DNA of 50,104 nt from a virus (IMGVR_UViG_3300030045_000003:1-50104), one strand, 5' to 3'. Counted from the first letter of the stretch, positions 12,234 through 34,503 are shown. Numbers and translations: made by a program. The notes: generated by a model from the sequence alone, not told the origin.

Positions 12234-12752
12234 TTACGGAAGTGTAGGCGATTGCCTTCGAACTTCCCAGTGCGCCCGAATCGACTCTGATATTTTGGCC
12301 CTCGTCTCGTCGGAGACGGCACGCCTGGCTAGAGCCGCCTTCTGCATTTTGGATTTTGTTTCCTGGGTGTTCTTTCTACCCCGATGTGTCGCCGAAGCTC
12401 TTTCTATTGCCTCTGGGGTTCTTCGCTTTCCCCTGTTCTTTTCGGCAATCCTCTTGAGGGTCTCAGGGGCCAACCTAACCGCACCGTCACCACCATCGGT
12501 TAGGTTTACCAATGGCCCATCCCCCAGGTCTCTCCGGCCATAGAGCGCGATCAATTCGCACTCAAGTTCACAGGCATACCATTCCTGAACGTCGGACACC
12601 ACAATTTCCACGAAGTATCCGTGCTTATCGACCACAGAGCGCCACCAGTCGCTTCTGTTATGCCTTGATCGGGCGCGCTTTCCCTTGCCCTTCCCGACAT
12701 AGAAGGGCTCGCCATCCGTGGCGCGTCGATGCAGATACACGTAGTGCATCAC
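12234..12752 (-). CDS. Free-standing homing endonuclease (GIY-YIG-like, NUMOD3)
   Basis: YVYLHRR...PFYVGKG...R, LVNLTDGGDG, ETRAKISES motifs; lower GC than flanks. Confidence 0.8.
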   Translation of the reverse strand: MMHYVYLHRRATDGEPFYVGKGKGKRARSRHNRSDWWRSVVDKHGYFVEIVVSDVQEWYACELECELIALYGRRDLGDGPLVNLTDGGDGAVRLAPETLKRIAEKNRGKRRTPEAIERASATHRGRKNTQETKSKMQKAALARRAVSDETRAKISESIRAHWEVRRQSPTLP

Positions 12753-18043: not shown

Positions 18044-18523
18044 TTACAAAATGCCGTCGCGCTGAAGGATTCCCAGGCTGCGCAGGTGGCCCAGCATCCA
18101 ATCGATGTCCAGTTCATCGCGCGTCATGCCGCCCACCCCGGTCATCTGGTCGAAGGCGGCATCGCAGGAGGTACAGGCATAGGCCCCCATCAGGTCATCG
18201 GCCTTGGTGCCCATGCCGCGGCCACCTTCGCCCAGGCGCGCGCCCCAGCGAGCGTGCGACCAGATGGTCTTGGTGGGATCGTGCGAGCAAATGCCGACGT
18301 AGCGCACCTGACAGGGCTTGCCGCGCGCGCTCTCGCGAATGCGCCGGCCGCGCGCCTCTACCGCGTGCAGCGATGCCGGAACTCGTGCACTCGGCGATGC
18401 GCGGAATGCGTCCGGGTGATGCGCGATGGCTTCGGCCAGGCCGATGGACGGCGCTGGCGTGCGCGGCGTAATGGCGCCCTCCATGACCTTCTGCGGCCGG
18501 CGCTCGGCTTTGTTCCAGGTCAT
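18044..18523 (-). CDS. DUF1364/YbcO-like Zn-binding nuclease-domain protein
   Basis: SARGKPCQVR..GIC...H...GMGTKADD..GAYACTSC motif. Confidence 0.75.
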   Translation of the reverse strand: MTWNKAERRPQKVMEGAITPRTPAPSIGLAEAIAHHPDAFRASPSARVPASLHAVEARGRRIRESARGKPCQVRYVGICSHDPTKTIWSHARWGARLGEGGRGMGTKADDLMGAYACTSCDAAFDQMTGVGGMTRDELDIDWMLGHLRSLGILQRDGIL

Positions 18524-18671
18524 CCGATTTCCCGAGCGCGCATCTCGCGGGCAATCGCCTGCGCGCGCCGGATCAGCTTGCGGCGCCGAAAGAACGCCCA
18601 CCACGGCAGGATGTCATGCGCGCGCAGGAGGGCGACAGCCACGCGAGCGTTCTCGAAGTCTCGGACGGTCA

Positions 18672-27266: not shown

Positions 27267-27929
27267 ATGGAGAAAGCTCTCATTGAAAGGCGCGAGCGCC
27301 TCATCCGAGGCATTCGCGGCTACGCTTCGATCCTGCGAGTGCTCATGACCAGCAACGCGACCACGGCGCAACTATCGGCCGTGATGAGCTTTGGTGGTTC
27401 GGAGAAGACGAACCGCATCGCCATCAATCGCCTGCTTCGGCGGCTCGCGCCGGACGTCGTTCACATCGCCGGATGGGCTCGCGAAATCGGATGCCCGCCA
27501 TGCGAGATTTGGGCCTTTGGCCCAGGCGAGAACGCCCCTGCGCCACCAAGGCTGGATGGCAGCAAGCGCACGCGCATCAACGCGGCCCCGCGCCGCCATC
27601 GAATCGAGACGATGACCTTCGCCAGCATCATCATTGCCCTGCGCGACGGTCATTCGGTCATCGACCTGGCAGAACTGTCTGGTAGCGCCCTGACGGCTCT
27701 CTATCCGTTCATGAGGCACGCGCATTCCATCGGCCTTGTGCACATCGCGGAGTGGCACCGCCAGGCGTGCAGCAACCCGCGCCCGGTATTCGTGCTTGGT
27801 GCCGGCCGGGATGCGCCCAGGCCGAAGCCGCTGCCGAAGATCGTGACCGACCGACGATATAACGCCGCCCGGAAGTCGCGCAGGGTCGCCACATCTATTT
27901 GCAGAATGATGGCATCGCCGCTTGCATAA
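27267..27929 (+). CDS. Putative DNA-binding protein with internal duplication
   Basis: Two copies of VHIA.W.R.......(W/F)..G.G..AP.P. Confidence 0.6.
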   Translation: MEKALIERRERLIRGIRGYASILRVLMTSNATTAQLSAVMSFGGSEKTNRIAINRLLRRLAPDVVHIAGWAREIGCPPCEIWAFGPGENAPAPPRLDGSKRTRINAAPRRHRIETMTFASIIIALRDGHSVIDLAELSGSALTALYPFMRHAHSIGLVHIAEWHRQACSNPRPVFVLGAGRDAPRPKPLPKIVTDRRYNAARKSRRVATSICRMMASPLA

Positions 27930-27950
27930 GTCTCGGAAGTCCGATATAGT
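27922..27950 (+). promoter_or_regulatory. Rightward promoter with operator, upstream of the tnpB/CRISPR operon
   Basis: TTGCAT-17 nt-TATAGT; TCGGAAGTCCGA at 27933-27944. Confidence 0.75.
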
Positions 27951-27985
27951 CGAGTCTTCGATCAGCAAACAACCGGAGACACCCG

Positions 27986-28138
27986 ATGATCTATCCGCGC
28001 TATGCCGTCAAGGCCGCATACGACACCGCGATGACGCTCTACCGCACGTACCAGGAAGCCATCGAGGCCGTCGCCCGCGAACTCTGCATTCCGGTCGAAC
28101 AGGTCGAGGAAGCGCTGGCGCCGGAGTCTGTGCAATGA
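27986..28138 (+). CDS. Small hypothetical protein (50 aa, MIYPRYAVKAAYD...)
   Basis: RBS GGAG; translated by hand, below the ORF-track cutoff. Confidence 0.6.
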   Translation: MIYPRYAVKAAYDTAMTLYRTYQEAIEAVARELCIPVEQVEEALAPESVQ

Positions 28139-28311
28139 CGCGCGGCTTTGAACCCTGCATGTGCGGCGCGACGGACTGCCCCTCGTGCGGCCCGGCGCAG
28201 GGCTATGCCGTTCGGCGCGTCTGGGTGCATGGGCGAGGCTATCGCTACATCAACCCGGACGAGGAAGCAACCGAAGATGAGTCGGCCGATCAAATCGACG
28301 GCGCCGACTGA
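28135..28311 (+). CDS. Small Cys-rich protein
   Basis: ATGA overlap; CMCGATDCPSC. Confidence 0.55.
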   Translation: MTRGFEPCMCGATDCPSCGPAQGYAVRRVWVHGRGYRYINPDEEATEDESADQIDGAD

Positions 28312-28342
28312 CATCACCCGAATAGACCAAGGAAGGAAGAAG

Positions 28343-28726
28343 ATGAGCAACGACATCAAGGAGTTCGAAGACCTGAACGGCCACACGCTGGCGCAGTGCT
28401 TCAAGACCAGCGACGACGGCGAATTGCATTTCGTCTTGGCGGATGGACGGCAGTTCAAGCTGCACCATAACCAGGACTGCTGCGAATCCGTCTACATCGA
28501 GAGCATCGTTGGCGATCTAGCCGACCTCGTTGGATCGCCGCTGACGATGACCGAGGAAGTCAGTAGCTCGGAACTCACGCCAGAACAGATCGAACACCAA
28601 AGCGGATGCGACTCGTTTACTTGGACGTTCTACAAGCTGGCCACGATCAAGGGCTACGTGGACGTTCGCTGGTTCGGTAGCTCGAATGGCTACTACAGCG
28701 AATCCGTCAGCTTCGATCAAATCTGA
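28343..28726 (+). CDS. Conserved phage hypothetical protein
   Basis: HNQDCCESV...TWTFY...T.KG.V...W.G.SNGYYSE pattern; RBS AAGGA. Confidence 0.75.
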   Translation: MSNDIKEFEDLNGHTLAQCFKTSDDGELHFVLADGRQFKLHHNQDCCESVYIESIVGDLADLVGSPLTMTEEVSSSELTPEQIEHQSGCDSFTWTFYKLATIKGYVDVRWFGSSNGYYSESVSFDQI

Positions 28727-28746
28727 CCGCGCTACCGGAGCCTGAC

Positions 28747-29154
28747 ATGGACAACGCCATCGCTTGCCCGTACTGCCATGCGCCTGCCCGGCTGGTGTCG
28801 GGTGAGGCGATCTATCCGCATCGGGTCGATCTCTATGACCTGAAGTTTTGGCAGTGCCAACCTTGCGATGCCTACGTGGGTTGCCACAAGGCGGGTGCGA
28901 TGACCGACACGGGCCGCAGCGATGGAACATTCCCGCTCGGGCGCTTGGCGAATGCGGAACTTCGTCGGGCGAAGTCTGCCGCTCATGCCGCGTTCGATCC
29001 GCTGTGGAAGTCGAAGCGCATGAAGCGCCGCGACGCTTACGGCTGGCTCGCACGCGAACTCGGAATCAGTCGCGACAACTGCCACATCGGCATGTTTGAC
29101 GTTGACGCGTGCAGAGCTGTTGTGGCCGCTGCATCGAACTTCAGGAAGGACTGA
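28747..29154 (+). CDS. Zinc-finger protein (DUF3268-like)
   Basis: CPYC...C..CDAYVGCH...PLGRLANAELR...AH.AFDPLW...CHIGMFD. Confidence 0.8.
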   Translation: MDNAIACPYCHAPARLVSGEAIYPHRVDLYDLKFWQCQPCDAYVGCHKAGAMTDTGRSDGTFPLGRLANAELRRAKSAAHAAFDPLWKSKRMKRRDAYGWLARELGISRDNCHIGMFDVDACRAVVAAASNFRKD

Positions 29155-29155
29155 C

Positions 29156-29551
29156 ATGGACAACGACAAGGGGCTGGGAAGCATGACCAATAGCGCCAGT
29201 GCGGTGGAACGTCTGCGGGCTTCGCTTTTGACATGGGCGGGCCGAGAAGGCTCCATCGTCAATCAAAACGACATCCACGCCGTCCTGGACACCCTCGCCG
29301 AAAAGGAGTCCGAGCTGAAGGGCGCCTACGAGTTGCTGCACGCCACCGAGGACAAGGCTGTCGCCAAGGAGTCCGAAGTGCAGGCTTTGCGGGAGGTCAT
29401 CGACCACACCGTCAAGACCATCGAGAGGCAACTCGACCTGATCGGCGAACGCGCTCCCGGGAAGTTCCTCGACAAGACGCCGGTCATGCGCAGCTTGCAG
29501 GCGCACGTCAAGAGACTGAGCGCCGCCCTCAACCCGAAGGAAGACCAATGA
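29156..29551 (+). CDS. Hypothetical coiled-coil protein; contains the near-perfect target of CRISPR spacer 2
   Basis: RBS AAGGA, ATG 29156; 29179-29210 matches the reverse complement of spacer 2 at 30/32. Confidence 0.7.
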   Translation: MDNDKGLGSMTNSASAVERLRASLLTWAGREGSIVNQNDIHAVLDTLAEKESELKGAYELLHATEDKAVAKESEVQALREVIDHTVKTIERQLDLIGERAPGKFLDKTPVMRSLQAHVKRLSAALNPKEDQ

Positions 29552-29763
29552 CCATCTACAAATTCAACGCGCAAGTCACCATAAGCGTCTACACCGAAGT
29601 CGAGGCCGATAGCGCGTCAGAAGCTTTGGAGATCGCCAAGGAACGAGAAGTCGGGCAGCTGTGCCACAACGCCGTCTACCCTGACTGTGACGAGGCATGG
29701 TTCACCGATGAACTGGATGGCCAGCCCGAAAAGATCACGCTGAACGAGGTTTCCGATGAATGA
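29548..29763 (+). CDS. Small acidic hypothetical protein
   Basis: ATGA overlap, 71 aa. Confidence 0.6.
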   Translation: MTIYKFNAQVTISVYTEVEADSASEALEIAKEREVGQLCHNAVYPDCDEAWFTDELDGQPEKITLNEVSDE

Positions 29764-30247
29764 CACCCCCGCCCCTGGCGAGCCGATCAGCTTGCCTGAG
29801 CCATCTCCCATCGTCGGCGAAGCCGGCCGTAACAGCGTTCGCTGGGGTCTCGGCTACACCGCCGCTCAAGTCCGCAACATCGTTGCAGCCGACCGCGCCC
29901 ATGGTGCTGCGAGCCCTGACGTGACAAAGATGTTGGAGGCGTTGAAACTCGCTCGTCGCACGCTGTCAATGATGAAGCCTTGGGATGCCTACGACGCGGA
30001 GTTGCTTCAGAAGGCAGTCGCCGCCATCGACGCTCTCGGTGCTGCCGCAACCCAGGCGAGGGCTGCTGTGGGGACAGAGCATGGGCGCCGGCTAGTGCGC
30101 GCCCTGGTTCGTGCGGCATGTCTGCAAGAGAGAGAGCCCAGCGAAAAGAACCAAAACGCATACCACTCGGCGCGCGAGACGGTCGAAGCCGCACTCTCTG
30201 CGCAGACCCCTGGCGAGGGGTGGACGGCAAAGGACTCCGAAAAATGA
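29756..30247 (+). CDS. Hypothetical protein
   Basis: 163 aa; its stop overlaps the tnpB ATG. Confidence 0.6.
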   Translation: MNDTPAPGEPISLPEPSPIVGEAGRNSVRWGLGYTAAQVRNIVAADRAHGAASPDVTKMLEALKLARRTLSMMKPWDAYDAELLQKAVAAIDALGAAATQARAAVGTEHGRRLVRALVRAACLQEREPSEKNQNAYHSARETVEAALSAQTPGEGWTAKDSEK

Positions 30248-31344
30248 TCAAGACCCTCCAAGTTCGGGTCAAGGACAAGCATGCGTCCTTGCTGGCAGCG
30301 ATGGCGAGAAACGTCAACACCTGTTGGAACTACTGCAACGAGACCAGCCAGAAGGCGATCCGGGATCGCCGGCAGTTCCTGAGCGGCTATGACCTGCAGA
30401 AGCTCACCGCTGGGTTCACCGCTTGCGATGGTGTTGAGATCGGCGCCGGTACGGTAAATCTGGTGTGCGTCGAGTACGCAAACCGTCGCCGTCAATTCAA
30501 GCGCCAACGGCTCAACTGGCGCGTTTCGAACAAGAACTCTTCCCGCTACTCGCTTGGATGGGTTCCCATGAAAAGCACGGAGATCAGGTATCGGTCGGGC
30601 CAGATCGTCTATGCAGGAGTGGCGTTCAGCCTGTGGGATAGCTACGGTCTGGGCGACTACGCGCTCCGCGCCGGTTCCTTCTCTGAAGACGCACGCGGCC
30701 GGTGGTATTTCAACGTCGCTGTCGAGGTAGCAGCCACCAAGAGCGAGGGCACCAAGGCCGTCGGCATCGACCTAGGTCTGAAGACCGCCGTCACCTGTTC
30801 GGACGGCCAGACTTTCACGGGCCGGCTGTACCGCGCCAGCGAGGCAAAGCTCGCCAAGGCCCAACGCGCTGGCAAGAAGCGCCTAGCGCGGACGGTGCAC
30901 GCCAAGATCAGGAACCAACGCAAGGACGGACTGCACAAGTTCAGCACTGCGCTGGTGCAGGAAAACGCCGCCATCTTCGTGGGCGACGTGAGCAGCAAGA
31001 AGATGCTCAAGACCAAGATGGCCAAGTCCACGCAGGACGCGGGCTGGGCCATGTTCAAGACCATGCTGGAGAACAAGTGCCGTCAGGCAGGCGTGGTGTT
31101 CGAAGTTGTCAACGAGGCATACACAACCCAAACCTGTTCTCAGTGCGGAAGCATTGAGGGGCCGAGAGGTGTCGCAGGTCTTGGAATAAGACGATGGCGA
31201 TGTTCATGCGGGGTCGAACATGACCGCGACGTGAACTCGGCGCAAAACATCGTCCGAATCGGGCTTGATTCGCTAGCTGTAGGAGCCGCCTTGAGCGGAG
31301 AAGCCAATGTCGATGCGGTGTCGGGCCGCTGCATGGGAGCCTGA
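30244..31344 (+). CDS. tnpB: RNA-guided endonuclease TnpB (366 aa), no adjacent transposase
   Basis: WNYCN helix; RuvC-I VGIDLGLK; RuvC-II region FVGDV with downstream VNEAYTT; Zn finger CSQC...CSC; RuvC-III HDRDVNSAQNI; ATG 30244. Confidence 0.92.
   Translation: MIKTLQVRVKDKHASLLAAMARNVNTCWNYCNETSQKAIRDRRQFLSGYDLQKLTAGFTACDGVEIGAGTVNLVCVEYANRRRQFKRQRLNWRVSNKNSSRYSLGWVPMKSTEIRYRSGQIVYAGVAFSLWDSYGLGDYALRAGSFSEDARGRWYFNVAVEVAATKSEGTKAVGIDLGLKTAVTCSDGQTFTGRLYRASEAKLAKAQRAGKKRLARTVHAKIRNQRKDGLHKFSTALVQENAAIFVGDVSSKKMLKTKMAKSTQDAGWAMFKTMLENKCRQAGVVFEVVNEAYTTQTCSQCGSIEGPRGVAGLGIRRWRCSCGVEHDRDVNSAQNIVRIGLDSLAVGAALSGEANVDAVSGRCMGA
31150..31327 (+). ncRNA. Predicted TnpB omega-RNA overlapping the tnpB 3' end; guide predicted from 31308 (5' boundary uncertain)
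   Basis: GGAG-CCGC-CTTGA-GCGG-AGAAGCCAA (31282-31307) resembles an IS200/IS605 right-end hairpin ending in YCAA; the next 16 nt match 32181-32196 (minus strand) at 15/16. Confidence 0.5.
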
Positions 31345-31345
31345 A

Positions 31346-31840
31346 ATGGACTACCAAACTCTTGAAGACGAGTTGCGCGCTGTCTGCGTCGCGGCCGATG
31401 CCGGCGCTGGCGGGTGGGTGCGCACGTCGCGCATCCTGGAAGCCATTGCCGCCCCTACGGCACCCCAGGCAGTGGGAGAGCCGGTGGCGTTCACTGCCGC
31501 ACAGGCAGCTCAGAAACTTGGGAAGACCCAAGACGACCCCGAGGATAAGTTTACTGCCGCACAGGCAGCTCAGAAAGTTCCACCGCACTGGCGCTATCGG
31601 TCATGCTGGTTCACTGCCGCACAGGCAGCTCAGAAAACTGCACCAGCAGCGACCGCAGAGCCGAGCGCCGTGGCGGGGGCAAGGGAGCCTCTGACGGATG
31701 AGCAGATTGATGAGGAATACCTCAACGGCGATCTCCAACCTCAACTTTACGACAGGCAAGGCATGTTTCAGGCCGGCGCCCGCTTCGCTGAGCGCTACCA
31801 CGGCATCGCTTCTCCTGCTGGTGATGGGGGAGCGAAGTGA
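31346..31840 (+). CDS. Small phage protein (164 aa) whose middle is encoded by the CRISPR array
   Basis: RBS GGGAG, ATG 1 nt after the tnpB stop; open through all repeats (FTAAQAAQK x3); stop overlaps the next GTG. Confidence 0.7.
   Translation: MDYQTLEDELRAVCVAADAGAGGWVRTSRILEAIAAPTAPQAVGEPVAFTAAQAAQKLGKTQDDPEDKFTAAQAAQKVPPHWRYRSCWFTAAQAAQKTAPAATAEPSAVAGAREPLTDEQIDEEYLNGDLQPQLYDRQGMFQAGARFAERYHGIASPAGDGGAK
31489..31636 (+). CRISPR. Type I-F CRISPR mini-array: 3 repeats (28 bp), 2 spacers (32 bp), no cas genes or leader
   Basis: Repeats GTT(C/T)ACTGCCGCACAGGCAGCTCAGAAA at 31489, 31549 and 31609 with CTGCC/GGCAG stem. Spacers CTTGGGAAGACCCAAGACGACCCCGAGGATAA and GTTCCACCGCACTGGCGCTATCGGTCATGCTG. 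Confidence 0.97.
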
Positions 31841-32475
31841 TCGCAGCGCTCTACGTCGAAACTGACGGCGCGTACTTCGGCCTGCCTGGCGTAGACCCGT
31901 GGGATGAGCCGCGTGATGCGCGGAAGTACGCCGGCCCGCATCCTGTCGTCGCCCATCCGCCGTGCCAGCGCTGGGGGCGCTTCTGGCATGGAAGCACATT
32001 GAAGCCGCATCAGTTCGAGTTGGGCACGGACGGCGGCTGCTTTGCTGCCGCGTTCAGCGCTGTTCGCACGTTCGGCGGCGTCCTTGAACACCCCGCTGAC
32101 TCGCAAGCATGGCCTGCGTTCCACATTGCCAAGCCGCCTCGGACTGGCGGCTGGATTCGTGCGGACACCATCGGCGCGGACGACACCGCATGGACATGCT
32201 GCGTCTACCAAGGTCACTACGGCCACATTGCGGGCAAGGCAACCTGGCTCCTGGCCTGCGGCCTCAAGCGCGAACAGCTTCCCGAGCTGCGCTGGGGCAA
32301 GACAGAACAGCGCATCCACCCGCGCGCCCTGGAGCTGCACGGCTACGAGAAGGCTAGGCGGATCGGAATGATGGCGATGGTCGGCGGAAAGGACAAGACA
32401 CGCATCCGCAACGCCACGCCGCCCGAGTTCCGGCAGGTGCTCATCGACATCGCCAACCTGGCACGGAAGGACTGA
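31837..32475 (+). CDS. DNA cytosine methyltransferase-like protein (short form)
   Basis: VVAHPPC (motif IV-like), VLEHP (ENV-like), Q..YGH...K.TWL, and terminal TPPEF motifs; lacks a clear FxGxG. Confidence 0.55.
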   Translation: MIAALYVETDGAYFGLPGVDPWDEPRDARKYAGPHPVVAHPPCQRWGRFWHGSTLKPHQFELGTDGGCFAAAFSAVRTFGGVLEHPADSQAWPAFHIAKPPRTGGWIRADTIGADDTAWTCCVYQGHYGHIAGKATWLLACGLKREQLPELRWGKTEQRIHPRALELHGYEKARRIGMMAMVGGKDKTRIRNATPPEFRQVLIDIANLARKD

Positions 32476-32476
32476 C

Positions 32477-32794
32477 ATGACCCCCGAATCATCCCGGCTC
32501 GCGGAAGAAGCGAAGCAACACTACCGGCACGCGATCGCTGACTGCATGTACGGCAAGCAACGCAGCGTGGCAATCCACGGCCAGGCACTCTTTTCGATGA
32601 TCGACCGACTTGCAGCTCTGGCATCCAGCCAGGCAAGCGAGCCGGTGGAGGCGCGAGATGGCTTCTACGTGATGCCGCACAAGGCCACGCCGGAGCATCG
32701 GCTTCACCTACAGATCGGCGGAACCATCTGGCGCTACGTGCTTGAGGACGCCGCCCCTCAGTCCAACACGCAGAGCAAGGGAGAAGGCGAGTGA
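32477..32794 (+). CDS. Hypothetical protein
   Basis: RBS AAGGA, 105 aa. Confidence 0.6.
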   Translation: MTPESSRLAEEAKQHYRHAIADCMYGKQRSVAIHGQALFSMIDRLAALASSQASEPVEARDGFYVMPHKATPEHRLHLQIGGTIWRYVLEDAAPQSNTQSKGEGE

Positions 32795-33426
32795 CCGCAC
32801 CGAACTGCCGCAAATGCGGTTCCCCCATGGCTCCTGGAATCGCCCTCGCCAACACCATGACCGGAACAGGCGACTTCGGCCGCGATGACGTGGTGACCAT
32901 GAGCCCTGGTGGCCCTGGCAAGCTCATCGACTGCGACAAGTGTACAGCCTGTGGGTGGAGTGTCAGCCCCAAGACGCCGAGCCTGCCGGTGGTCGTCGTC
33001 TCTGCCCCTGAGCGCATCTTCCTGGTCATCGGCGAGGACTGCCCTCCTGAGGCCCGCTGGGATCAACTGGCCGAAGTCACCTGGTGCGAGGACAACATCG
33101 ACGGCAACGGCATTGCCTACCAGCGACAAGACCTCGCCGCATCAGCTATCGAAAGCCTCCAGGCCGAAGTCGAGCGGCTGACGAATGAGTGCACCGCACT
33201 GAGAATCAGAGCCAACGCTCAGCCAGTCCGGATGGATCAGTGCGAGACGTATTGCGCGACAGCAAAGCGCCTCACCGCCGAAAGGGATGCAGCCCTGCGA
33301 AAGTACAGCGAATGGCACATCGAGGCCCTGAGCCGTGCGGCCAAGGACAAGGCCGAACCCGAGAACCCGGCCGCAATCGCGGAGCGCTTCTGGCGCGGAA
33401 CCCTATCAGACCGCAACAAACCGTAA
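32791..33426 (+). CDS. Hypothetical protein with N-terminal Zn ribbon
   Basis: CRKC...CTAC; APERIFL...EVTWCEDNI motif. Confidence 0.65.
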   Translation: MTAPNCRKCGSPMAPGIALANTMTGTGDFGRDDVVTMSPGGPGKLIDCDKCTACGWSVSPKTPSLPVVVVSAPERIFLVIGEDCPPEARWDQLAEVTWCEDNIDGNGIAYQRQDLAASAIESLQAEVERLTNECTALRIRANAQPVRMDQCETYCATAKRLTAERDAALRKYSEWHIEALSRAAKDKAEPENPAAIAERFWRGTLSDRNKP

Positions 33427-33433
33427 TTGGTGC

Positions 33434-33462
33434 TTGACAGGTAGTCTCGGGTGTCCGATACT
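33434..33462 (+). promoter_or_regulatory. Rightward promoter with operator (near-copy of 24756 cassette)
   Basis: TTGACA-17 nt-GATACT; TCGGGTGTCCGA at 33447-33458. Confidence 0.85.
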
Positions 33463-33498
33463 TCGTTTACCGAAGCAGCAAACCAACCGGAGAACGAC

Positions 33499-33699
33499 AT
33501 GACCAACGAAATTATGACCAAGATCGCCGAGCACTTCAAGAACCCGGCCGCTCGCATCGTCGTTGCTGCGCCTGGCGCACGTACCAACATGATTCTGTCG
33601 CCTGCGAACTTCTCCGAAATGAAAGTCGATGGCTCTGGCGTGCGATTTCGCAAACTGTACCTGTTCGCCTCGCAACTGCGCTTCGCGCGGGTGGCGTAA
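33499..33699 (+). CDS. Hypothetical early protein
   Basis: RBS GGAG, ATG 33499. Confidence 0.65.
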   Translation: MTNEIMTKIAEHFKNPAARIVVAAPGARTNMILSPANFSEMKVDGSGVRFRKLYLFASQLRFARVA

Positions 33700-33935
33700 T
33701 GGCTGACCTGCCGAAATCCTTCATGGGTCTTGGTGCCTTTGATGGCGCGCGTGGAGAGCCGCCCTATACCGTGACAGACCTTGACGAAACCGAGCGCAAC
33801 GAACGCGAACGATGCGCCGTCATCGCGGAGACAACCGAGGTTCTTATCGACCTGCGTGACTGGACTTGTTTAACGCGCAAGGCACTTACTGCGCTCGTCG
33901 CAAAAGGCATTGCCGACGCCATCCGAAACCAATGA
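33699..33935 (+). CDS. Hypothetical protein
   Basis: TAATG overlap; ERERCA motif. Confidence 0.6.
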   Translation: MADLPKSFMGLGAFDGARGEPPYTVTDLDETERNERERCAVIAETTEVLIDLRDWTCLTRKALTALVAKGIADAIRNQ

Positions 33936-34071
33936 ATCCAGAGCCTGCCATGACGATGATCTTCACCCACATGGACGAGGCCCTTGACTGCGCGGTCGCG
34001 CTGAGCAACGCGGGCCGCACGTACCGCTACACGCGCAACGCCAAGGGCGAGCACGAGATCACCACGAGGGA

Positions 34072-34503
34072 TTGATGATGAACACCAACGAAGAAACTAT
34101 CGATGTGATTGAAGAACAAATCAAGAAGCGGGCCTTGATTGCCGCGTTCAGCGCCATGAGGCCGCTATTTGATGATTCTGAAACGATAGAGGACAGGGCG
34201 GCAATCAGGACGGTCTTGAATGCCGCCGCCGCCGTCTCTGAGTCGGCGAAAGGGGCGCCGGCAGGGGTCTACATCGATTCCACTTCAATCTTAGCGTCCG
34301 CATTCGCCGCTCACACAATGGGGGTTGGCGCCGAAGACTGCGCGCCCTATTCGGTTGTTGGTTGGCGAGTCGAATGTTTCGTGCAGGCCCTTCGCGGAAT
34401 GGACATGCTCGAATGCGCTTCTGCGTGCCTTCTCGACGGGGTCGATTACTCCGCGAACTCGCGTTCTTTTAAGGACGCCATGGAAATTCAAGATCGCAAT
34501 TAG
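34072..34503 (+). CDS. Hypothetical protein, last gene of the rightward arm
   Basis: ~143 aa, lower GC, converges on the late operon end. Confidence 0.55.
   Translation: MMMNTNEETIDVIEEQIKKRALIAAFSAMRPLFDDSETIEDRAAIRTVLNAAAAVSESAKGAPAGVYIDSTSILASAFAAHTMGVGAEDCAPYSVVGWRVECFVQALRGMDMLECASACLLDGVDYSANSRSFKDAMEIQDRN

Follow-up and report, generated by a model that had tools for sequence, protein, structure and literature searches.

What does a CRISPR array do inside a protein-coding gene of a phage? The DNA analysed here, referred to as the window, spans 50,104 bases (63% G+C) and is a complete virus record bounded by direct terminal repeats. A PHROGs scan of 40 ORFs depicts a myovirus-like phage with a tail sheath, baseplate proteins, a portal, a large terminase and a major-head-like protein, together with ParB-like, replication-initiation, NinB, HNH and homing-endonuclease genes. 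No integrase and no cas gene was found among these 40 ORFs, and searches of the window for three Cas families, Cas6f, Cas7f and Cas1, returned no matches. At positions 31489-31636 on the plus strand, the phage carries a 148-nt segment that consists of three 28-nt repeats and two 32-nt spacers with a period of 60 nt. This segment lies within a 164-residue ORF, here termed orfX. Is the segment a genuine CRISPR array, how does the gene accommodate it, and against whom might its spacers be directed?

A type I-F-like array with a bacterial repeat

The segment is a genuine type I-F-like CRISPR array that is positioned in frame inside an ORF. Each repeat aligns with the full Rfam model CRISPR-DR4 (RF01317; model positions 1-28) and exceeds the gathering score of 35 (Table 1). 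A repeat search that tolerated up to three mismatches yielded three matches in the window and none in 100 shuffles. The 5-bp hairpin stem is kept in all three repeats, and the sole variant base, C4T in the second repeat, is located outside the stem; the same variant is found in 5 of 3047 host repeats. The two spacers, S1 and S2, are mutually unrelated in sequence.

The exact 28-mer is present in 109 bacterial genome stretches, mostly in long arrays and mainly in Lysobacterales and Burkholderiales, the latter including Polaromonas, Ideonella, Ramlibacter, Limnohabitans, Comamonas and Alicycliphilus among others. Cas6f (PF09618) scored above the cut-off in all five of the bacterial genomes with the exact repeat that were tested. 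Spacers in host arrays with this repeat measure 32 nt in 2734 of 2928 cases and 33 nt in another 177, in agreement with the type I-F spacer-length pattern described in PMC5059440. The chromosomal type I-F arrays of Burkholderiales and Lysobacterales thus share an identical 28-nt repeat, the 32-nt spacer length and the hairpin with the phage array, whereas their leader is AT-rich (42% G+C on average), cas genes lie next to them and their spacers number in the tens.

Could the locus instead be a protein-coding tandem repeat that merely resembles CRISPR? The repeats are translated in frame, and the encoded peptide FTAAQAAQK has a composition like that of the A/Q/P/T-rich linkers of the protein family to which the flanks of orfX are related (for example, ATQAAQQPK in the protein P0003). 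However, all 28 positions of the repeat unit agree with the repeat of the 109 bacterial stretches, the layout of 28 + 32 nt is strict and encloses unrelated spacers, one spacer copies a distant gene on the opposite strand, and Tandem Repeats Finder reports no array in the region. Given the CRISPR-DR4 scores, the bacterial repeat identity and the S2 match described below, we judge a mere protein repeat to be refuted and assign it a next to negligible probability.

Table 1. Positions of the array, orfX and neighbouring features, counted from the first base of the window
Feature	Position	Strand	Details
Gene holding the spacer-2 protospacer, 131 aa, no known family	29156..29551	+	protospacer = codons 8-19
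Imperfect protospacer of S2	29179..29210	-	30/32; mismatches at spacer positions 22 and 32
tnpB, 366 aa	30244..31344	+	PF07282 1.4e-23, PF01385 4.2e-16; directly 5' of orfX
Ribosome-binding site GGGAG	31335..31339	+	6 nt 5' of ATG 31346
orfX, 164 aa + stop	31346..31840	+	mosaic small phage ORF reading through the array
N flank: protein module LEDELRAVCVAADAGAGGWVRTSRILEAIA and linker PTAPQAVGEPVA	31346..31488	+	homology to P0011, P0013 and P0003
CRISPR repeat 1, 28 nt	31489..31516	+	CRISPR-DR4 47.5 bits
Spacer 1 (S1), 32 nt	31517..31548	+	between repeats 1 and 2
CRISPR repeat 2, 28 nt, C4T variant	31549..31576	+	CRISPR-DR4 44.2 bits; hairpin intact
Spacer 2 (S2), 32 nt	31577..31608	+	appears derived from the lineage's gene 29156-29551
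CRISPR repeat 3, 28 nt	31609..31636	+	CRISPR-DR4 47.5 bits
C flank: linker TAPAATAEPSAVAGA and C-terminal module REPLTDEQI..DLQPQLYD..FQAGARFAERYHGI	31637..31837	+	homology, 10 proteins
Conserved phage gene, phrog_12600	31837..32475	+	start overlaps the orfX stop as GTGA

Reading frame, flanking modules and upstream signals of orfX

orfX is tightly packed between its neighbours. Its start codon lies 1 nt past the tnpB stop codon (31342-31344), and the GTG start codon of the downstream gene at 31837 overlaps the orfX stop codon (31838-31840). The tnpB gene shares the operon with the array, although no role for it in the mechanism discussed below is shown. The orfX frame reads without a stop through GEPVA, FTAAQAAQK, LGKTQDDPEDK, FTAAQAAQK, VPPHWRYRSCW, FTAAQAAQK and TAPAAT. 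The initial annotation had reported a threefold FTAAQAAQK at a 60-bp period, a ribosome-binding site and coupling to the genes on both sides, and all three observations hold.

The same annotation had been puzzled that an array of 148 nt, which is not a multiple of three, leaves both flanks in frame, and it had offered segment replacement or selection for the frame as explanations. Both flanks are indeed in frame. Repeat 1 begins with a G (31489) that completes the upstream Ala codon GCG at its wobble position; the array therefore adds 49 whole codons, and translation can continue into the C-terminal module and the coupled downstream gene. Moreover, the repeat-spacer unit of 60 nt equals 20 codons, and gain or loss of a unit consequently never shifts the frame. 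Of the two explanations, segment replacement is plausible in light of the protein relatives described below, whereas selection for the frame is not supported. The repeat is open in all three sense frames, and 32-nt host spacers are open in the FTAAQAAQK frame in 73% of 2734 cases, or in 82% of the 1655 spacers with a G+C content of at least 55%. These fractions give a chance of 0.53-0.67 for two open spacers, and we estimate the chance of the whole in-frame and open arrangement at about 0.2. Since chance alone would produce open spacers this often, selection for an open frame is not shown, and we read the array-encoded peptide as a tolerated passenger and not as a selected function. An out-of-frame insertion would have cost orfX its C-terminal module and its coupling to the next gene, which is a simple reason for the survival of the embedding.

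Base composition alone speaks neither for nor against coding by orfX, whose GC3 of 0.61-0.72 is lower than that of most phage genes and which a crude gene caller missed. The AlphaFold2 model of orfX has a mean pLDDT of 58 and a pTM of 0.21, with pLDDT values of 43-56 in the array-coded part and 65-83 in the C module. Such a weak model is compatible with a floppy insert and is not evidence for one.

The sequence relationships of the flanks indicate that they are real protein modules of a mosaic gene, as their resemblance to small mosaic phage proteins had already suggested in the initial annotation. A HMMER search of 1.84 billion representative proteins with P0002, a single-repeat variant of orfX, retrieved 15 proteins at E <= 0.001, the query itself included. 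The C-flank module forms the C-terminal module of ten proteins of 64-365 aa (E 7e-11 to 9e-4) and is 67% identical to P0005 over 46 aa. The N-flank module recurs as an internal module of P0011, P0013 and P0003 (E 4e-5 to 3e-4), with 74% identity to P0011 over 39 aa. In P0003, the N module is followed 13 residues on by LTDEQI with no repeat between them, and the order of N module, linker and LTDEQI is therefore naturally occurring. P0006 shares both linkers of orfX, PTAPQAVGEPVA on one side and AEPSAVAGAREPLT with TAPAATAEPS on the other, and contains a module of ~100 aa between them where orfX contains the array. It is plausible from this comparison that the array replaced a middle module of the ~100-aa kind. 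FTAAQAAQK is similar in character to the family linkers with their many A, P, Q and T residues, which may be why an array is tolerated in a linker.

The array-less homologues called for in the initial annotation exist at the protein level, with no repeat between the modules in P0003 and another module at the place of the array in P0006, whereas junctions at the DNA level could not be defined. The downstream gene is encoded in 234 viral loci, 80 of which were kept for comparison. The orfX flanks are absent from these 80 loci (tblastn, best E 0.2-0.5), as are the repeat and any other neighbouring gene of the phage; the neighbourhood is so mosaic that synteny yields no junction. No viral contig was found to encode P0006.

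Among the closest forms of orfX, P0001 is an exact copy of the protein and occurs on 10 contigs. P0002 has flanks identical to those of orfX, a single FTAAQAAQK and no spacers, and is known from one 602-bp contig; 593 pattern matches to it in JGI metagenomes included no confirmed case. P0002 is either an ancestral solitary repeat, a product of recombination collapse between repeats or an assembly artefact. It is the sole hint of array turnover. In four metagenome runs (X7-X10, contigs only), every piece that covers the array has the three-repeat form with no differences, and neither joints nor the single-repeat form were found in these contig pieces. Six further runs contain all sampled words of the array region.

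The position of the array inside an ORF is unusual. From 58 IMG/VR stretches with this I-F repeat type, we obtained 29 solitary repeats or mini-arrays (up to four repeats) located away from locus ends, and none of the 29 has an open frame of at least 120 nt on both sides. The phage array is bordered by 143 and 204 nt of open frame, both homologous to protein modules. None of the mini-arrays or solitary repeats in 30 loci that contain the exact repeat is placed in an ORF that looks coding. A long spanning frame in one locus (L190) was considered as an embedded case and rejected, its translation being junk. The literature that we consulted reports no phage CRISPR array embedded in frame in an ORF, although the supplementary tables of the Racr and Cracr papers may list some. 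The solitary-repeat finder described in PMC10651486 masks ORFs predicted at a confidence of at least 80% before searching, and it would therefore miss arrays that are embedded in ORFs.

The array also differs from host arrays in its upstream region. The 100 nt 5' of the array are coding and 75% G+C, whereas a mean of 42% was obtained for the final 100 nt of 47 host leaders, and no similarity was found between the phage segment and these 47 leaders. The host leaders are AT-rich, and many of those viewed contain a TCTTTAACAA-like motif. Moreover, in the scanned region 27500-34500, the stretch from 30272 to 32939 is free of predicted sigma-70-like promoters. With no host-like leader and no predicted promoter, any pre-crRNA would come from the operon mRNA, in line with the earlier proposal that a leaderless array would have its crRNAs cut from mRNA.

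Spacer origins and possible targets

Where do the spacers come from? The main new result of the present analysis is that S2 appears to derive from the phage's own lineage. S2 matches the window itself at 30 of 32 positions (BLAST E 1.5e-9), ~2.3 kb upstream of the array, in a gene of the same operon direction. On the strand to which the crRNA would pair, the protospacer is followed by GT (29211-29212, plus strand), in contrast to the type I-F consensus GG that is described for 90-93% of acquired protospacers (PMC5059440). The carrier codon at the PAM is CGT and the consensus would be CGG, both of which encode Arg, so that a synonymous change suffices. The two differences between S2 and the carrier comprise one synonymous change (GGA/GGC) and one non-synonymous change, AAT (N) in one version and GAT (D) in the other.

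The gene product that contains the protospacer has only one relative in 5.8 billion protein clusters. This relative, P0018, is a mosaic protein of 152 aa that begins with MDNDKGLGSMTDSASAVER and is encoded on a 3.1-kb contig. The reverse complement of S2 encodes SMTDSASAVE, which is exactly the P0018 sequence, while the carrier has SMTNSASAVE. S2 hence fits the allele of the relative better than that of the carrier, given that P0018 has D and the carrier N; P0018 was compared as protein, and the D/N agreement amounts to one nucleotide. A perfect S2 target was found in neither IMG/VR nor the JGI metagenomes. An apparent match of S2 to nrdB of Dickeya phages (23/25, E 0.08) was dropped as chance after the 30/32 self-match had emerged, and six short DNA matches (28-41 nt) of the protospacer gene in 401 genomes are likewise read as chance. 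The self-match, which was absent from the first reading of the locus, would make the element a virus-borne mini-array, a known class.

The self-match may also carry a price. An imperfect match of 30/32 beside a PAM with one G is probably of the kind that triggers type I-F priming, given that a non-consensus TG PAM triggered priming on the plasmids used as CRISPR escapers in PMC5059440. Such priming would set the host's immunity on the carrier itself, a burden that the mini-array model has to bear.

S1 has no other match in the window at up to three mismatches, no exact match in IMG/VR either as the full 32-mer or as a 21-mer, no significant match in 50,697 phage records, and no match at up to three mismatches in 401 genomes of Burkholderiales, the order of one candidate host. 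Conversely, none of 2928 host spacers from 109 loci matches the phage fully, the best being a 19-nt exact run. The metagenome runs X8 and X9, in which the phage array is found, also include small contigs that combine its repeat with different spacers; possible type I-F hosts therefore share the habitat of the phage.

Might the array be an inert relic or hitchhiker, that is, host-array units that were copied by recombination or off-site integration into the orfX linker, where they are harmless and have no selected crRNA function? The leaderless and apparently promoterless setting, the chance-level openness of the spacers and of the whole arrangement, the lack of an S1 target in the searches above and the constancy of the array across the contig pieces of four runs would all fit such an origin. 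In addition, a host array immunised against the phage family would hold an S2-like spacer. However, none of the three hairpins is disrupted and both spacers have kept their full 32 nt, neither spacer is present in the host-array loci compared, and the synonymous PAM change and two mismatches of the carrier protospacer are the expected residue of selection against self-targeting. On this balance, we regard an inert relic as unlikely.

Possible use of the host Csy machinery

We propose that the locus is a phage-borne type I-F mini-array, free of cas genes and leader, that directs the host Csy complex against related phages and so mediates superinfection exclusion. We hold this reading to be somewhat probable on balance and favour it because its features equal those published for virus-borne mini-arrays. 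The array would be transcribed within the plus-strand operon mRNA, and host Cas6f would cut the three repeat hairpins in this mRNA. Two complete crRNAs would result, in each of which a 32-nt spacer stands between an 8-nt CUCAGAAA handle and a 20-nt hairpin. These crRNAs would be loaded into the host Csy complex, and Cas2/3 would destroy related phages with a GG-flanked matching protospacer, a choice of target phage that we infer. The carrier would be spared because its own S2 target has a non-consensus PAM and two mismatches.

Published virus-borne mini-arrays have one or two spacers and no cas genes, and they target closely related viruses, often close to the array, while the carrier's own locus is point-mutated (PMC6858448; PMC7099407). 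The phage versions are described in the same sources as devoid of host-like leaders, and mini-arrays are thought there to mediate heterotypic superinfection exclusion; the experimental validation reported in PMC7099407 concerns archaeal viruses. The known cases include the SPV1 and SPV2 mini-arrays of archaeal viruses (Medvedeva et al. 2019; PMC6858448) and the phage and prophage mini-arrays of Faure et al. 2019, as related in PMC6858448, PMC7099407 and PMC10651486. As far as these accounts describe them, they share with the present phage the one or two spacers, host-type repeats, the absence of detected cas genes, a nearby target in a gene of a relative and a mutated carrier copy, and the phage versions also share the missing host-like leader. 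The mini-arrays described elsewhere are intergenic, whereas the present one is embedded in frame in a translated mosaic ORF. Neither a reciprocal partner nor a confirmed target genome was found for the phage array. A further parallel is offered by vibriophage ICP1, which is described as using guides against a competing mobile element in the same way. ICP1 does so with a complete type I-F system and its own cas genes, in contrast to the present phage, in which no Cas6f, Cas7f or Cas1 was found.

The repeats might alternatively serve as an RNA anti-CRISPR decoy (a Racr or crRNA competitor) that titrates Cas6f or Cas7f or fills the Csy complex, the spacers being incidental. RacrIF1 is described as acting in this manner from a phage I-F repeat without cas genes, and it belongs to the solitary repeat units reported by Camara-Wilpert et al. 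2023 (PMC10651486). The present locus resembles it in having an I-F repeat in a cas-less phage and in the existence of a single-repeat variant with identical flanks, P0002. Viral crRNA-like RNAs that compete with host crRNAs are also described in bioRxiv 10.1101/2024.10.29.618823. However, a Racr as described is solitary, intergenic, driven by its own promoter and lacking a true spacer, whereas the phage locus has three repeats and two full spacers, lies inside an ORF and has no predicted promoter. Moreover, three canonical repeats and two full 32-nt spacers would make normal crRNAs and not aberrant complexes, and S2 appears to be a true protospacer-derived spacer. We therefore consider a decoy function rather unlikely.

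A regulatory role as a Cracr array, in which the spacers would pair in part with promoters of host cas or toxin genes and silence them via the host Csy complex, is to be considered as well. Multi-spacer viral I-F arrays of such a kind, which use host Cas proteins as the phage array would, are described in bioRxiv 10.1101/2024.10.29.618823. The spacers described there pair over at least 9 PAM-proximal bp with the host promoters, whereas the match of S2 is to a phage gene and extends over nearly the full length of the spacer (30/32), and the repeats of the phage are canonical and not degenerate. CC followed by the first 8, 9 or 10 nt of either spacer gave no match in 762,461 bases from 114 host I-F array or cas6f loci (expected 1.45 to 0.09), a sample that may miss the promoter of the true host. 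A regulatory array is in our estimation very improbable.

The mini-array proposed above could have a second use. The element may be both a working CRISPR array and a translated linker, such that 60-nt units change without breaking the gene, translation shields the array from polarity, and Cas6f cutting sets the level of orfX. We view this extension as quite doubtful. If it were true, translation would protect the promoterless and leaderless array and the downstream genes from polarity, and Cas6f cutting would tie the expression of full-length orfX, and perhaps of the coupled downstream genes, to an active type I-F system and so give the phage a built-in means of sensing host immunity.

The main evidence that viruses use host CRISPR machinery against each other comes from virus-borne mini-arrays. 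The present phage would add a clean type I-F example to this class, one with the escape signature that is expected in the carrier's copy of the target. Because arrays can hide in confidently predicted genes, such elements may be undercounted in surveys of phage-borne repeats and RNA anti-CRISPRs. If read-through of the array matters, the locus would be a rare DNA stretch that is both guide RNA and protein linker, and host Cas6f would act as a switch on phage gene expression.

tnpB and the CRISPR array

The tnpB gene is located directly upstream of orfX, the 164-aa mosaic ORF that holds the CRISPR array in frame. The adjacency of TnpB to a CRISPR array recalls the origin that has been proposed for Cas12. 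What type of repeat does this array contain? The repeats are plainly of type I-F, despite the tnpB neighbor. The tnpB start codon (ATG) and the stop codon of the gene before it overlap in the sequence ATGA. The tnpB stop is positioned 1 nt ahead of orfX, which begins just past it; a gap of 144 nt separates the end of tnpB from the array. The gene is tightly fitted in the operon, and element ends would have no space. No tnpA was seen, and Rfam gave no match to a guide RNA family. Relatives of the window tnpB are found in Ralstonia phages with 67% DNA identity.

Features of the window around and beyond orfX
Feature	Position	Strand	Description
tnpB	30244-31344	+	366 aa; PF07282 and PF01385
ORF	32791-33426	+	C-terminal end ...FWRGTLSDRNKP
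Homing-endonuclease-like and HNH endonuclease genes	12234-12752 and 18044-18604	both -	Sited in structural and replication regions

Type I-F repeats in other contigs

Short contigs from two metagenome runs (X8 and X9), aligned over window positions 31486-31579, carry the window repeat with other spacers beside it and are probably host CRISPR arrays from the same peat metagenomes. The IMG/VR stretch L085 (4584-4837) and a Corticibacter populi genome stretch (L128) represent the same locus, a prophage region, in which 3-4 I-F repeats form an array on one strand and a single exact repeat lies about 78 nt away on the opposite strand, in convergent orientation to the array. Another viral contig, L086, has the window repeat as a single, exact and isolated copy at 2238-2265; this copy occupies an intergenic position 3' of a small gene and is a candidate RNA anti-CRISPR.

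Module exchange among small ORFs

The 2535-aa protein P0004 matches the N-terminal part of P0002, the single-repeat variant of orfX, in 8 separate stretches (HMMER, E 2e-14, 26% identity), which may be matches of low-complexity or repeated modules. P0005, which has the C-terminal module of orfX in common, ends in ...FWGGTLSDRNKPT, to be compared with the end of the ORF at 32791-33426 given in the table. Many small ORFs in this part of the window and among its relatives evidently exchange short modules.
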